Shown here: piece by piece, positions 1,182-64,000 of the stretch
How positions within the stretch are numbered: position 1 is the first letter of the stretch
Layout: each line of letters begins with the position of its first letter
Program-made: the position numbers and the translations under genes
The notes under the pieces: model-generated
What the model was told of the DNA's origin: nothing
Seen by the model: only the letters and a program-made list of their open reading frames with translations
Databases searched by the model: none
From: a virus
Reading direction: 5' to 3' (one strand)
Length of the DNA stretch: 64,000 nt
Virus record (IMG/VR): IMGVR_UViG_3300025888_000011
Coordinates: 64,001-128,000 of that record

Positions 1182-1257
1182 GGCGATGTGGCGAAATTGG
1201 TATCGCAACGCACTTGTAATGCGTAGATTGAAGATTCGAGTTCTTTCATCGCCTCCA
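1182..1257 (+). tRNA. tRNA-Thr (anticodon UGU), CCA encoded
   Basis: Acceptor GGCGATG/CATCGCC, D arm GCGA/TCGC, anticodon stem ACGCA/TGCGT with loop CTTGTAA, T loop TTCGAGT, 3' TCCA; 76 nt. Confidence 0.9.
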
Positions 1258-2839: not shown

Positions 2840-3310
2840 GTGGGTGTATTAATGAAAAAAGGAACAAAGATACATAACAGAGTTAGAAAAGTGAGAGAAG
2901 ATACATTATATAAATTATATTTTAAACTACCACATTCTTGTAAATCTTGTTGCTATAATAGCAATTGTCCTCATATAGAGAATATGAATGATATTACAAA
3001 TTGTGATAATTACAAAGAATCAATTGAATTAAATGAACTTGTTTTAATGATGAAAGAACAAAATATAAACATTGAATCATTTTGTGAAAAATACAAAGTT
3101 AAGAAAGAATATTTTATGGAAATGATAAAAGGCAAAATGCTAATGTCATATAAATATTATATTGCAATCTGCACTAGACTTCACGTTGAAGAAATGGATG
3201 AATTTTATATTTATAAAGCAAGATTTTTAAATGAAGAAAAGGAAATAATTAGAAACGAAAATAAAACCTTAAAAAGTGAGGTACAAATAGATGCAAATAT
3301 ATTATACTAA
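2840..3310 (+). CDS. Hypothetical protein, Cys cluster plus possible HTH
   Basis: CKSCCYNSNCPH; segment INIESFCEKYKVKKEYFMEMIKGK resembles an XRE-like HTH. Confidence 0.5.
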   Translation: MGVLMKKGTKIHNRVRKVREDTLYKLYFKLPHSCKSCCYNSNCPHIENMNDITNCDNYKESIELNELVLMMKEQNINIESFCEKYKVKKEYFMEMIKGKMLMSYKYYIAICTRLHVEEMDEFYIYKARFLNEEKEIIRNENKTLKSEVQIDANILY

Positions 3311-3545
3311 TAAAAATATTAACTGCAATGGCGATGGTGTAACAGGAAGTATGAATTTACTAACTGTTAAAAGAGATAATATGAAAGATTATAATTGTTT
3401 GGTGGATTTTGGAATGGTACAAAGTTCTAAAATCAAAGGTGACCAATTACACAAAATAAATAATAGAGATTTATTATTAGGGGGTGGTTTAGAACATGAG
3501 AATGTAATTATTAACGATATACTGTTAACGCATTCTCATGCATAA
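3291..3545 (+). CDS. Metallo-beta-lactamase/beta-CASP nuclease, N-terminal part (ends inside HxHxDH motif)
   Basis: GVTGS..LVDFG.VQ..ILLTHSHA then TAA. Confidence 0.8.
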   Translation: MQIYYTNKNINCNGDGVTGSMNLLTVKRDNMKDYNCLVDFGMVQSSKIKGDQLHKINNRDLLLGGGLEHENVIINDILLTHSHA

Positions 3546-4781
3546 GTAGACCATATTGCTTTGCTCGGGCGTGTTCCTAGCATTACCGAGTTAGACCACG
3601 CACATATTAGAATGACTGAATTAAGTGCTAAAATAGCTACCGTGATACTACAAGATGCTTGTCATATTTTATTAAAAGAACATGAAAAATCAGTTAAAAA
3701 AAGTAAGGATAAAAAACAACAAACTGTTCCTTATATAACTCAAAAAAGCACAGATGATGTTATAGAAAGAATACAATCTTATTCATTTGATAAACAAATT
3801 TTAGTCGATGAAGGGATAAAAATTACGTTCAAAAGTAACGGACATTTGCCCGGTTCTGCTTCAATATTAATGGAAATAAGAGAGGGTTCATACGAAAAAA
3901 AGACAATTTTATTTAGCGGAGATACATCAGGCACAAGACCATTTATGCTAACAAAACCACTAGATATTAAAGAAAATAAAATTGATTTTATACTCAGTGA
4001 ATCTACATACAATAATAAATTAATAGAAAAAAACAACTTTGAGAGTGAATTTGTAAAGTATATTCAAGAAACTTGTATAGAAAAGAAAGGAAAGATAATT
4101 GCTCCTGTTTTCGCAAGTGGACGTAGCACAAATTCTCTAATTCAATTGAGACACGTTTATGAACAACATCCTGAATTTAAAGATATAAAAGTTTACCTTT
4201 GTAGTCCTATGGCATGTAAATTACATAAAATTCTATGTAATGACACAAATAAAGAATTTTATGCAGAGGAATGGCATGACGAACTTGATATAGTTGATTG
4301 GGGACAAGTTTCCTATGTTGAATCATTTAGAGCAGTTGTAAAAATGTTAAATAATCCAGACCCTTGTGTGATATTTGCAAGTGCAGGTATGATTGGGGCT
4401 TATTCAGAATACATAATAGGACAATTAGTATCTACTCGTAAAAATCGTGTAGTGTTTCTCGGATATCAATGTGTAGGGAGTGTCGGAGATTCTTTGCAAC
4501 AAGGAATACAAAAGACGATGACAGTCGAGGATGAAGAAGGAAAGAGAAAAAGTGTTAATATTAATGCGAAAATTTCTACTGTCAAAGGAATGAGTGGACA
4601 TTCGGATTACAAAGAATTATGCAAATTATGGAGTTCAGTCGAAAAGAAAAAATTAAAAACTATTCTTTTAAATCATGGAAATCCTGATGGAATGCATTTC
4701 TTTAAAAAAGAATTACAAAAAGCATTACCAAATGTAGATATTAAAATTACTAAATATAATGAAATCGTTAGACTTTGTTAA
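3546..4781 (+). CDS. Metallo-beta-lactamase/beta-CASP nuclease, in-frame continuation after the stop
   Basis: Same frame resumes VDHIALLG; GHLPGS, LFSGD, SESTY, PVFASGRS, GYQ, SGHSD and LNHG motifs all intact. Confidence 0.8.
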   Translation, partial: VDHIALLGRVPSITELDHAHIRMTELSAKIATVILQDACHILLKEHEKSVKKSKDKKQQTVPYITQKSTDDVIERIQSYSFDKQILVDEGIKITFKSNGHLPGSASILMEIREGSYEKKTILFSGDTSGTRPFMLTKPLDIKENKIDFILSESTYNNKLIEKNNFESEFVKYIQETCIEKKGKIIAPVFASGRSTNSLIQLRHVYEQHPEFKDIKVYLCSPMACKLHKILCNDTNKEFYAEEWHDELDIVDWGQVSYVESFRAVVKMLNNPDPCVIFASAGMIGAYSEYIIGQLVSTRKNRVVFLGYQCVGSVGDSLQQGIQKTMTVEDEEGKRKSVNINAKISTVKGMSGHSDYKELCKLWSSVEKKKLKTILLNHGNPDGMHFFKKELQKALPNVDIKITKYNEIVRLC

Positions 4782-4812: not shown

Positions 4813-4977
4813 ATGGATTATAAAATAATAATTAAACCAAATATTGCTCGTCAACTCTTACATTTAGGACATGAAATAAAAGATATAAAGCCTAAAAAAG
4901 AAAATCCTTTAGAAACAGTGTTTGTTTTTGAAGAGACTGAAAAATTCAAAGTAGATTTGACTGCTATATCAAAATAG
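4813..4977 (+). CDS. DUF5659-like small protein (54 aa, absent from ORF track)
   Basis: RBS AGGAG; MDYKIIIKPNIARQLLHLGHEIKDIKPKKENPLETVFVFEETEKFKVDLTAISK. Confidence 0.75.
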   Translation: MDYKIIIKPNIARQLLHLGHEIKDIKPKKENPLETVFVFEETEKFKVDLTAISK

Positions 4978-4992
4978 TAGTCTTTTTATTTT
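4959..4992 (+). terminator. Terminator overlapping the mini-gene stop, upstream of endonuclease
   Basis: GACTGCTAT/ATAGTAGTC stem then T-rich tract. Confidence 0.6.
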
Positions 4993-5025
4993 ATAAAAAA
5001 CTCGTAAAAAGGAAGGTGTTTATTA

Positions 5026-6189
5026 ATGGAAGAAAAATTATTATTAAAGAAATCAGCAATATTGTGGGTGAACGAATACTATAATTATGATAAAGAGGAT
5101 TGTATTTTACTAAAAGTATTTAGAAAAAATTTAACAGAATCATATGATATTCTAATAGATAAATCTGATTTTGAATTAGTTTCACAAGGTCAATGGTATG
5201 GTCATATGAGTAGAAAAAATACTCATTTAAAAAATATATTACATATATTATGGACTCATACTAAAAACAACAAGAAAGTAACATCTGACATATATCAATG
5301 GATTCTAGATAGTAAAAACGAAAATCGTATAGTAGACCATATAAGTATGGATAGACAAGATAATAGAAGACAAAATTTAAGATTCGCAACAGCAAAAGAA
5401 AACACTGTAAATCAAGAATATACTGGATGGAGTTATCAAGATGGTAAGTATTGTAGTTACATTTATTGTGATTCTATATATTTTTATTTGGGTAGCTATG
5501 ATAATAAAGAGGATGCAGAAGCAATTTACTTAAAAGCTTATATTATAATGGGCTATGATAAAATTTCTGAATCTTGCAAATCAAGAATTCAACTAGCGAA
5601 TATTAGACTTTCTGAAGAAGATTGTTCTAGTAAATATCTTAACAGATTAATAATGTATAGAAATGAAGGGGTTATACCTAAAATCGACAAAGAATTGATT
5701 AAACTTATAAAATTATCTACATTCCAAGGTAATGGATTGGGATATAATTATGATAAGCCAACTAAAAGATATTTAGTAAGAATTAAAATAAATAATAAAG
5801 AAGTTAATATAGGTAGATATAAAACAGAAAAAGAAGCTAATGATATATATTTAAAATCATGTTTGATAACAAACAAGAATGACCAATATTCTCAGATTGA
5901 AAAAAGAATACAAGAACATAACATTATATTAACTGAAGAAGATTATAAACATAAATATTTAAAAAAGGTTTATAACTTATATAATAATATTGACGAAGTT
6001 ACTGTAAATGGGAGATTTAATTATACATATGAAGAGAACATGAATATAATTATAAAATTAGTAAATGAAGGAGTTAATTGGAATAGAATATCACAATATT
6101 TAAGAGAAAATATAAAAGGACTTGAAGGAGCAAAAGGCGAAATGGTAAAAGTAAAATATAATAAGTATATAAAAGCATTAAGTATTTAA
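5026..6189 (+). CDS. Free-standing HNH endonuclease with two AP2-like DNA-binding repeats
   Basis: IVDHISMDRQDNRRQNLR (HNH_3 type); YLGSYDNKEDA and NIGRYKTEKEA repeats. Confidence 0.8.
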   Translation: MEEKLLLKKSAILWVNEYYNYDKEDCILLKVFRKNLTESYDILIDKSDFELVSQGQWYGHMSRKNTHLKNILHILWTHTKNNKKVTSDIYQWILDSKNENRIVDHISMDRQDNRRQNLRFATAKENTVNQEYTGWSYQDGKYCSYIYCDSIYFYLGSYDNKEDAEAIYLKAYIIMGYDKISESCKSRIQLANIRLSEEDCSSKYLNRLIMYRNEGVIPKIDKELIKLIKLSTFQGNGLGYNYDKPTKRYLVRIKINNKEVNIGRYKTEKEANDIYLKSCLITNKNDQYSQIEKRIQEHNIILTEEDYKHKYLKKVYNLYNNIDEVTVNGRFNYTYEENMNIIIKLVNEGVNWNRISQYLRENIKGLEGAKGEMVKVKYNKYIKALSI

Positions 6190-62296: not shown

Positions 62297-63544
62297 ATGA
62301 ATATAAAAAGCTTAACAGTAGGAATGGTAATTAAGAATTATAAATTGATGTGTGAGGTATTGGAAATTAAAGTAACTTCTGGAGCGTCTAAGCAAGCACA
62401 AATAAAAGAAATGCAGAGGTATTTTAGATTCCATAAAGAAGGAAACAAATTTGTGATTGATGAGATATTTCCAACTAAAAAAGCTAGTGTGGATAAAAGA
62501 CATGTTAATAAAGGTGGTTCTTATAATGTAACTGACTATACTAAAACTATAGAAAAATTAATACTTAATCTATTAGTACAAGATGGAAATAAAAGTGGTC
62601 TTGGATTTGGTAGAGTATTTCTAAGCAAAAATCAATTGTTAACAGAATTTAAAATGATAAATCAAAACTATGTATTTTGTAAAAGAAGAATGATGAAATT
62701 ATCTAAATTTTTAAATATACAACAAGAAACTATTGATGAATGGTATAGTTGTTCAAATGATATGTTGGAGAGGAATTTAGAATATGCTTTAAAGAGTTTA
62801 GAAAATCAATGTCTTATAACATGGACTAAGGAAATAACTGTAGTAGAAATGATTCCAATGGCAGAGATAATAGAAGATGGTACTAGAATTATTAAACATA
62901 CGACAATAGATAATTATGGTGATGAAATAGTTGATTATACATATTATGCTGATAAAACGGTAAAGTCTAATTATAGAGAAGGAACTGACAAAGAAAAAGT
63001 ATTTATAGTCGCAACAGAATTAAAAATAATGTCTGAATTGAAATGTGATGGAAAACAAATGGTTATTAAAATGGGTATGTGGGATGTATTTAAAGAAAAA
63101 GTTGATGCTATTGTATTAAAAGAATTAAATATAGCTTTCTATTACAAATCATATAAAATTTTATTCGATGAAACAAATGTTGAAAATGTTGTTGATGATA
63201 TGTATGAGGAATTTGAAATATCTAAAGATGACTTAATCAATAAAAAGAAATCTTTAAATGGTGATATAGTATGTAGATTAAATTATAATATTGAAAAAAG
63301 ATATGGCAATGCTGTGGAAGAAATATCTACAATAATGGGGACTCCTAATGACACATTTAAACACAATAGATTGATAAGAAGGTCTAGTGAAAATTATATA
63401 TCTGATAATAGTAAATTAACGAAGAGTCTTATTGAATTAGGATATAAAAATATAAAAGATAACGTCAAGAAAACAAAAATAACTATTGATAATTCTGAAG
63501 CAGACAAAATGATGGATGAATTATTTGGAAAATTAGATAATTAA
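62297..63544 (+). CDS. Hypothetical protein, possibly DNA-binding
   Basis: RBS AGGAGG; KNYKLMCEVL..GASKQAQIKE..RYF N-terminus; function not recognised. Confidence 0.6.
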   Translation: MNIKSLTVGMVIKNYKLMCEVLEIKVTSGASKQAQIKEMQRYFRFHKEGNKFVIDEIFPTKKASVDKRHVNKGGSYNVTDYTKTIEKLILNLLVQDGNKSGLGFGRVFLSKNQLLTEFKMINQNYVFCKRRMMKLSKFLNIQQETIDEWYSCSNDMLERNLEYALKSLENQCLITWTKEITVVEMIPMAEIIEDGTRIIKHTTIDNYGDEIVDYTYYADKTVKSNYREGTDKEKVFIVATELKIMSELKCDGKQMVIKMGMWDVFKEKVDAIVLKELNIAFYYKSYKILFDETNVENVVDDMYEEFEISKDDLINKKKSLNGDIVCRLNYNIEKRYGNAVEEISTIMGTPNDTFKHNRLIRRSSENYISDNSKLTKSLIELGYKNIKDNVKKTKITIDNSEADKMMDELFGKLDN

Positions 63545-63612
63545 AAGTTGCCTAATATTGAAGTCCCCTTTATATAAATTAATAATAGACATGTCAATAT
63601 TAGACAACTTTT
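63543..63612. repeat. 19-bp inverted repeat (1 mismatch), 32-nt spacer
   Basis: AAAAGTTGCCTAATATTGA ... TCAATATTAGACAACTTTT. Confidence 0.85.
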
Positions 63613-63867
63613 GACAATGACAAGTAAAACAAAAGTTCAAGAGATTCAGATTTAACATTTGACGATAGAGCTGTCAAAAGTAAAATCTCTTGTGCAAGGC
63701 TATTCGCCTTTTACAAGTTGATATTATGTTAAATTTTTTCTTTATGGTTAATCGATACAATAATATTTAATAATTGTTAGAGTATACAAATTTCCATTAA
63801 TTGTATACTCTATAGAGTTAAATTAATAAAAGAGTAAAATAAAATAACATAGAAGGTGGTTAAAAAT

Positions 63868-64000
63868 ATGTATGGTTTAACAAGAGAAAAACTAGAGAAT
63901 TTAGTAAAAGATGTTCAATTTGAATGTAAAAAATCAGAAAAATTAACTGAGGTTGAGAATTTTATTTCGGAATTATTAATAAAAAATAATTGTAATAATG
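63868..64000 (+). CDS. Hypothetical protein, runs off window end
   Basis: RBS AAGGTGG; MYGLTREKLENLVKDVQFECKK... Confidence 0.55.
   Translation, partial: MYGLTREKLENLVKDVQFECKKSEKLTEVENFISELLIKNNCNN

Follow-up and report, generated by a model that had tools for sequence, protein, structure and literature searches.

A stop-first gap in the metal-binding motif of a viral beta-CASP nuclease gene and its possible bypass by the ribosome

We analysed a stretch of viral DNA of 64,000 nucleotides (nt), referred to here as the window, which corresponds to bases 64001-128000 of a 141-kb virus record (IMG/VR IMGVR_UViG_3300025888_000011; 26.7% GC). The window carries a gene for a predicted beta-CASP metallo-nuclease that is split by a stop codon inside its metal-binding motif, HxHxDH (motif 2). 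A split at the same place was found in diverged relatives, and both halves of the gene are under purifying selection. The ribosome may hop over the gap to make a full-length enzyme, and this interpretation is weighed below against several alternatives.

Anatomy of the split nuclease gene

Positions 3531-3554 of the window read CAT TCT CAT GCA TAA GTA GAC CAT in a single frame, which gives H-S-H-A-stop-V-D-H. A contiguous HxHxDH is encoded only if TAAGTA is skipped. The first-pass annotation, made from the letters of the window, had described this interruption and had stated that no start codon precedes the Asp-His codons and that the motifs on either side of the gap are intact. All three statements were confirmed. 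The first canonical start in the frame of the C-terminal open reading frame (ORF) after TAA is TTG at 3561, beyond the Asp-His codons. No canonical start was found between TAA and DH, and no Shine-Dalgarno (SD) sequence within the first 40% of the C-terminal ORF. A start with an SD sequence is present in 100 of the 102 long coding-strand ORFs of the genome, and the C-terminal ORF is one of the two exceptions. The other exception lies just before the window (62818-63969 of the virus genome, G000). The features of the locus are listed in Table 1.

Table 1. Features at and around the split nuclease gene (positions in the window)
Feature	Position	Strand	Remarks
tRNA-Thr (UGU) gene	1182-1257		sole tRNA gene in the 141-kb genome
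SD-like GTGAGG	3276..3281	+	ahead of the N-terminal ORF; context ...aaaaagtgaggtacaaatagATG
N-terminal coding part	3291..3542	+	84 codons; ends ...DILLTHSHA; ORF with stop, 3291..3545
GCA (Ala)	3540..3542	+	proposed take-off codon; would occupy the P site as the stop arrives in the A site
Coding gap TAA GTA	3543..3548	+	6 nt; in-frame stop and proposed near-cognate landing codon GUA
C-terminal coding part	3549..4781	+	410 codons and stop (4779-4781); opens with GAC CAT, the DH of HxHxDH
Hairpin GCUCGG...CCGAGU	3563..3591	+	in the minimum free-energy fold; z = -0.76
Free-standing HNH endonuclease gene	5026..6189	+	starts 245 nt past the stop of the nuclease gene

The two ORFs together encode, judging from domain content, a beta-CASP metallo-nuclease of the CPSF73/RNase J type. 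The read-through product matches Pfam Beta-Casp (4e-13) and RMMBL (6e-10), as well as an unannotated PHROG. It has the layout of the CPSF73/RNase J/Artemis type, in which a metallo-beta-lactamase domain is followed by Beta-Casp and RMMBL. Structure matches of an uninterrupted relative, P0003, are CPSF3/CPSF73, Integrator-11 and archaeal CPSF. In its PDB match with CPSF3 (4e-26), HSHADH is aligned to HFHLDH of CPSF3. In an alignment of 15 sequences, H185, D211, E237, H437 and H462 do not vary; they presumably correspond to motifs 3, 4, A, B and C of the family. D39 in VDFG is conserved by eye. The N-terminal part, also read by eye, presumably holds motif 1 (VDFG) and the first half, HxH, of motif 2.

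Conservation of the split and selection on both halves

A search with the read-through protein returned a clade of close relatives with 57-87% identity, most of which are annotated as C-terminal pieces of 406-427 residues. Only P0003 and P0006 are full-length among them. A search with the 84-residue N-terminal product returned 11 further distinct short ORF products (82-87 residues, 58-99% identical) from independent metagenomes. All 11 stop at the motif and end in HSHA, except for one that ends in HSH and one in HAHA; this shared end is far beyond chance. The first-pass annotation had proposed to look for the split in relatives, and had held that its reading would fall if all close relatives were uninterrupted and reads pointed to an assembly error or a private mutation. 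Many relatives instead share the split at the same site, with gaps of varying length.

The split of the window itself recurs in an independent assembly of 141,181 nt and in a 99%-identical contig of 710 nt from another source, and different gaps occur at the same site in several metagenomes. These observations argue against a sequencing or assembly artefact, to which we give almost no weight.

Six junctions were read directly from the DNA, and the others were inferred from N- and C-terminal products paired on the same contig (Table 2). The stop comes first in every gap, and all three reading-frame offsets are represented. The codon directly before the stop in the relatives is GCG, GCC or CAC. 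Two sister pairs have exchanged the stop (TAA/TGA and TGA/TAG) while the remainder of the gap was kept, which suggests selection for the stop as such.

Table 2. Junctions between the N- and C-terminal parts (codon before the gap / gap / codons after the gap)
Locus	Junction	Gap	Remarks	Basis
Window	GCA / TAAGTA / GAC	6 nt		DNA
L039	GCG / TAACT / GAC	5 nt		DNA
L042	GCC / T / GAC	1 nt	stop TGA formed with the Asp codon	DNA
L003	CAC / TGAGTAT / GCC GAC	7 nt		DNA
L002, L041	CAT GCA GAT CAY	none		DNA
P0080 + P0005	GCG / TGACT / GAC		literal translation starts VTDH	paired products
P0081 + P0009	GCA / TGARGCN / GAC		MHEADH; Ala codon again precedes GAC	paired products
P0103 + P0100	CAC / TAGRTAT / GCC			paired products

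In a maximum-likelihood tree of the C-terminal halves, the clade is separated from uninterrupted outgroups with 100/100 support, and split forms are present in every subclade. Protein divergence within pairs that have the same type of gap is 13-17% (window/P0004, P0007/P0008 and L039/P0005). The uninterrupted forms P0003, P0006 and P0098 are scattered in the tree; therefore, the split state has changed at least three times. P0098 and the split P0014 even fall within one 90% cluster. For L003, the identity matrices of the N- and C-terminal halves are somewhat different, but 84 residues do not suffice to call a recombination breakpoint. In the phage collection, the search for nearer relatives gave only matches below 30% identity, and a scan of genome contigs gave one match at 27%. 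A DNA-pattern scan recovered the same two IMG/VR contigs again, and a protein search for truncated C-terminal pieces added nothing.

The ratio of nonsynonymous to synonymous substitution rates (dN/dS) was estimated by the Nei-Gojobori method among the window, L002, L003, L039, L041 and L042, with L041 left aside for the C-terminal half. The values were 0.07-0.27 for the N-terminal half and 0.07-0.24 for the C-terminal half. The N-terminal half of the window gave 0.15-0.21 against four relatives, and dN/dS of the window is not above that of the uninterrupted L002. The synonymous rate dS was approximately 0.9 or more in every pair with an interrupted locus. The four or five codons that separate the gap from the first start (D-H-I-A-L) carry synonymous differences only when the window, L039, L042, L002 and L041 are compared, even though neither the window nor L039 has a start ahead of them. 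The earlier statement that the gene is not decaying is borne out by these values, and comparison of the sequences indicates that the split is a real and conserved feature under selection.

Nevertheless, decay has to be considered. The nuclease may be dispensable, the DNA that encodes the motif may be a mutational hot spot (for example, through endonuclease cleavage and error-prone repair), and the copy in the window may be a recent pseudogene. Interrupted and uninterrupted alleles within one 90% cluster imply frequent changes of state, and lesions occur elsewhere in the family. L041, whose motif is uninterrupted, carries a 1-nt deletion within a Lys-rich linker (L041:520-545; AAGGGT to AAGGT) that leaves products of 136 and 352 residues; the cause is a genuine frameshift or else an error from low coverage. 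In P0106, an L042-type ENA contig of 791 nt, the stop after HSHA has become TGG, so the N-terminal frame runs 10 codons further. The same TGA-to-TGG change turns the catalytic Asp into Gly in the C-terminal frame, and P0106 looks like a dead allele. However, low dN/dS in both halves, no higher in the window than in L002, does not fit a pseudogene, and the 410-codon ORF stays open in every lineage despite DNA of 27% GC. At least 11 diverged lineages share the split, which persists over 13-17% protein divergence within subclades. Random indel scars would have no reason to begin always with a stop, nor to exchange one stop for another between sisters. We regard a dying allele as improbable in the window.

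A candidate ribosomal hop and competing explanations

Among the explanations offered by the first-pass annotation, a short ribosomal hop over the 6 nt fits the interrupted alleles best, and we give it a probability of approximately 0.5. A stop-provoked hop would yield the full-length nuclease, with GCA-UAA-GUA read as one Ala. The ribosome would arrive at ...CAU GCA holding peptidyl-tRNA(Ala) in its P site, with UAA in the A site. Termination would be slow, and the peptidyl-tRNA could quit GCA to pair again on GUA, 6 nt downstream, where the anticodon UGC would form a G-C pair, a G.U wobble pair and an A-U pair. Decoding would restart at GAC CAU, and the product would have a normal HSHADH metal site with the junction peptide ...THSHADHIALLGR. 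In the relatives, the same boundary would be crossed by a +1 shift (1 nt) or by +5 and +7 hops (5 and 7 nt). The output would probably be a minority of full-length enzyme together with an 84-residue by-product, and a gap with such an output would throttle a potentially toxic nuclease.

A stop directly 3' of the take-off codon, a feature of bypassing, is present in the window and in every interrupted relative. Hopping is known for ribosomes that have paused at a stop codon, and it takes them to codons matched by the anticodon in the P site (PMC5009743, PMC6815119). By base-pairing reasoning, the landing triplets would be GUA in the window, GCN in the P0009 lineage, and UAU for tRNA-His in L003; these are compatible with re-pairing but do not prove it. 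All three frame offsets occur; therefore, only a hop or a shift would restore HxHxDH in every allele.

Simple readthrough of the stop would give HSHA-X-V-DH and would demand that motif 2 tolerate two extra residues. The gap in the window is in frame, as readthrough would require. However, readthrough cannot mend the gaps of 1, 5 and 7 nt in the relatives, which are out of frame, and the spacing of HxHxDH is kept in the uninterrupted relatives, in the three outgroup sequences of alignment A1 and in CPSF3, the best PDB match. Stop usage in long ORFs of the genome is standard (TAA 68, TAG 19, TGA 9), and no suppressor tRNA is encoded. An alternative code or a suppressor tRNA was thereby ruled out, since tRNA-Thr is the only tRNA. 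Readthrough, which the first-pass annotation had also set aside for its spacing, is very improbable. Two genome scans for continuations without an SD sequence after a stop revealed no second split gene of this kind, and a genome-wide phenomenon was ruled out because the scans found the nuclease gene only.

Several observations weigh against the hop. The proposed take-off and landing codons of the window are not identical (GCA/GUA), and the landing triplets ACU in L039 and CCU in L042 would pair at only two of three positions. Neither a conserved stem-loop nor an upstream SD-like element was found, nor a nascent-peptide signal that could be demonstrated; for the take-off stem-loop, z was -1.07 to +0.24, and a gap of this size has no room for an SD sequence. 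Stop-hops that are not stimulated are inefficient. The recurrence of uninterrupted alleles (P0003, P0006 and P0098) suggests that the gap is dispensable and easily gained or lost, and the lesions of L041 and P0106 described above show that some alleles of the family are clearly decaying. In the L003 clade, approximately 48 nt before the stop are conserved in two frames, which suggests either dual coding or a recoding signal upstream. In addition, four relatives have a start in the C-terminal frame that overlaps the stop or, in L003, lies upstream of it.

These starts lead to the alternative of a gene in pieces. An 84-residue piece ending in HSHA and a piece of approximately 410 residues, beginning at or just before DH, would assemble non-covalently around the metal site, and the second piece would be begun by termination-reinitiation at an overlapping or adjacent codon. 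An ATG or GTG in the C-terminal frame overlaps the stop in L042 and P0011 (ATGCCTGA, MPDH), in P0005 (GTGA, VTDH) and in P0009 (ATGCATGA, MHEADH), which is the classic layout of translational coupling. L003, P0007 and P0100 have an upstream in-frame ATG, and the resulting extension of 16 residues is conserved apart from one residue. The last 16 residues of the L003 extension (MEYLYQTYGLAIPTEY) are identical in P0007 and P0008 and have one change in P0100, compared with a divergence of 10-13% elsewhere. In L003 (5170-5256), the 29 codons ahead of the gap are open in the C-terminal frame. Coupled reinitiation requires no SD sequence. There are also precedents for function in two pieces, because T4 gp39/gp60 divides a metal-binding Toprim site over two ORFs and is active, and NrdA of Aeh1 is functional as two pieces (preprint 10.1101/2022.08.31.505936). 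For the alleles with a start overlapping the stop or with an upstream ATG, whose layout fits coupling, a two-piece enzyme therefore competes seriously with the hop.

However, an own start and an initiation signal for the second piece, which are present in some relatives, are absent from the window. Because the gap of the window is in frame, nothing upstream of TAA is usable as a start, and the codons that follow, GTA GAC CAT ATT GCT, bring no canonical start before DH. L039 has GTA where its sister has GTG. The C-terminal pieces of P0004, the closest relative, and of P0012-P0014 were called only from (L)LGRV. In the +1-frame cases, the ATG arises automatically from CAT GCN. Furthermore, all N-terminal pieces end exactly at the motif, which a two-piece enzyme does not require. 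We consider a gene in pieces rather unlikely overall, though not to be dismissed lightly.

A Gly-rich segment of approximately seven residues (LGGGLEHE and variants; window 3477-3500) lies approximately 20 codons before the stop in the interrupted alleles. L002 and L041, both uninterrupted, lack it, yet P0006, likewise uninterrupted, has it. To see in it a nascent-peptide signal would be pure speculation.

The first-pass annotation had also connected a hairpin, the adjacent endonuclease gene and an intron scar with the gap, and these connections were not supported. The hairpin downstream of the stop finds no support as a stimulator: its z value is unremarkable (Table 1), and a comparable hairpin lies over the LGRVPS codons of the uninterrupted L041, while the interrupted L003 has none. 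The gene behind the nuclease had been called an HNH-AP2 endonuclease. Its HNH part is supported (HNH_3, 3e-6), but the AP2-like repeats are sub-threshold (E 0.058, 14 bits against a cut-off of 33 bits). No homologue of this gene was found in the flanks of L002, L003 or L042, and the best match in IMG/VR is only 29% identical, which speaks against a tie between the gap and the adjacent gene. An intron scar is similarly disfavoured, because an Rfam search of the gap region returned nothing at E values up to 1, and scars of 1-7 nt, each headed by a stop, are unlike imprecise intron loss. By analogy with MobA and T4 gene 60, protection of a target site, as proposed in the first-pass annotation, is a possible origin of the gap. 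An indel would perhaps have made the conserved DNA that encodes the motif immune to a homing endonuclease.

The nuclease gene has neighbours that encode an HU-like protein and a DNA-repair exonuclease, and it was therefore placed in a DNA-metabolism block. In the window, an ORF of 54 residues and the HNH gene (4813-6189) stand between the nuclease gene and the genes for a zinc-ribbon protein and the exonuclease. In L003, the homologue of the 54-residue ORF lies downstream by another 2 kb, and an HNH gene is missing; therefore, the HNH gene looks like a recent free-standing insertion.

The codon at which translation would resume is GAC in all four interrupted loci read from DNA and GAT in both uninterrupted ones, against 83% GAT in the genome. 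The genome strongly avoids GATC (8 observed, approximately 275 expected), GGCC (0 of 33), GCGC (0 of 20) and CCGG (2 of 18). GATC is also avoided in L003 and L042 and much less so in L002 and L041. GAC at this position can be ascribed to this avoidance because GAT-CAT would create GATC, and it was rejected as a recoding signal. In this small sample, the phages that avoid GATC are those with an interrupted nuclease gene.

Comparison with known recoding systems

The closest mechanistic parallel is found in synthetic stop-hops in E. coli, in which a stop lies between matched codons and 9 nt are read as one amino acid; according to a review, no natural in-frame stop-hop is known (PMC5009743). The order sense codon-stop-sense codon (GCA UAA GUA) is the same in both, as would be the resumption at the next codon and the slow stop in the A site as the trigger. 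Unlike these constructs, the case in the window is natural, conserved and located in a catalytic motif, and its flanking codons differ at the middle base.

In T4 gene 60, a gap of 50 nt associated with a MobA homing-endonuclease cassette is bypassed (PMC5009743; preprint 10.1101/2022.08.31.505936). Both genes have a stop right after the take-off codon (a proposed one in the nuclease gene) and an insert in the DNA of a conserved metal-binding motif of a phage enzyme acting on DNA or RNA. An HNH gene is nearby in the window, and an endonuclease can be lost while the gap stays. However, the gap in the nuclease gene is 1-7 nt instead of 50, no take-off stem-loop, gap SD sequence or identified nascent-peptide signal was found for it, its proposed take-off and landing codons are not strictly matched, and the flanks of the relatives contain no counterpart of the HNH gene. 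The +1 frameshift of prfB (RF2) at CUU UGA C resembles the 1-nt allele of L042 (GCC UGA C), which has the same UGA-C context and a stop in the A site. In L042, however, the P-site codon is not slippery and there is no SD sequence three bases upstream, and the 6-nt gap of the window involves no frameshift.

The nearest published natural candidate with short gaps is the gene encoding the terminase of Streptomyces phage Hau3, in which two inserts of 10 nt that start with the rare codon UUA may be bypassed (PMC10732093). They are likewise short, frame-disrupting blocks in a phage gene, absent from relatives, with a slowly decoded codon first. In contrast to the stop-first gap of 1-7 nt at one site, they have a hungry sense codon and a fixed length, and they relate to regulation by tRNA availability. 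The byps of Magnusiomyces capitatus mitochondria are 27-55 nt long, and they are mobile, genome-wide and mitochondrial, whereas the nuclease gap is a single site in one gene. Many of these inserts are bypassed with imperfect pairing of two of three positions between take-off and landing codons (PMC5009743), and imperfect pairing of this type would be shared by the nuclease gap. The split enzymes T4 gp39/gp60 and Aeh1 NrdA (split by mobE) resemble the nuclease in that a catalytic metal-binding region is distributed over two ORFs, with function retained in the known cases. They differ in that no endonuclease gene separates the pieces in the window, where the second piece also lacks a start, an SD sequence and added tails. 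A literature search found no paper on families of stop-first short inserts in phage enzyme genes.

Bench knowledge of utilised bypassing comes essentially from T4 gene 60 and from the mitochondria of yeast, and in-frame stop-hops have been demonstrated only in synthetic constructs (PMC5009743). If the nuclease is instead made in two pieces, a metallo-nuclease with its metal site shared by two chains would also be unusual; T4 gp39/gp60 indicates that such sharing is feasible (preprint 10.1101/2022.08.31.505936). It is almost as likely as not that the stop-first gaps of 1, 5, 6 and 7 nt form a natural allelic series at one codon boundary in a catalytic motif, that all of them are hopped, and that the series includes the first natural in-frame stop-hop. 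Such a series would belong to a broader and so far unrecognised class of indels that are rescued by recoding in the enzyme genes of phages and possibly selected for immunity to homing endonucleases. If so, the alleles with gaps of 0, 1, 5, 6 and 7 nt at one site would constitute a natural experiment on how a ribosome leaves a stop, how far it slides and how it chooses a landing codon. It would also mean that gene callers systematically split such phage genes, given that each database entry considered here is annotated as two ORFs, although one enzyme would be made.

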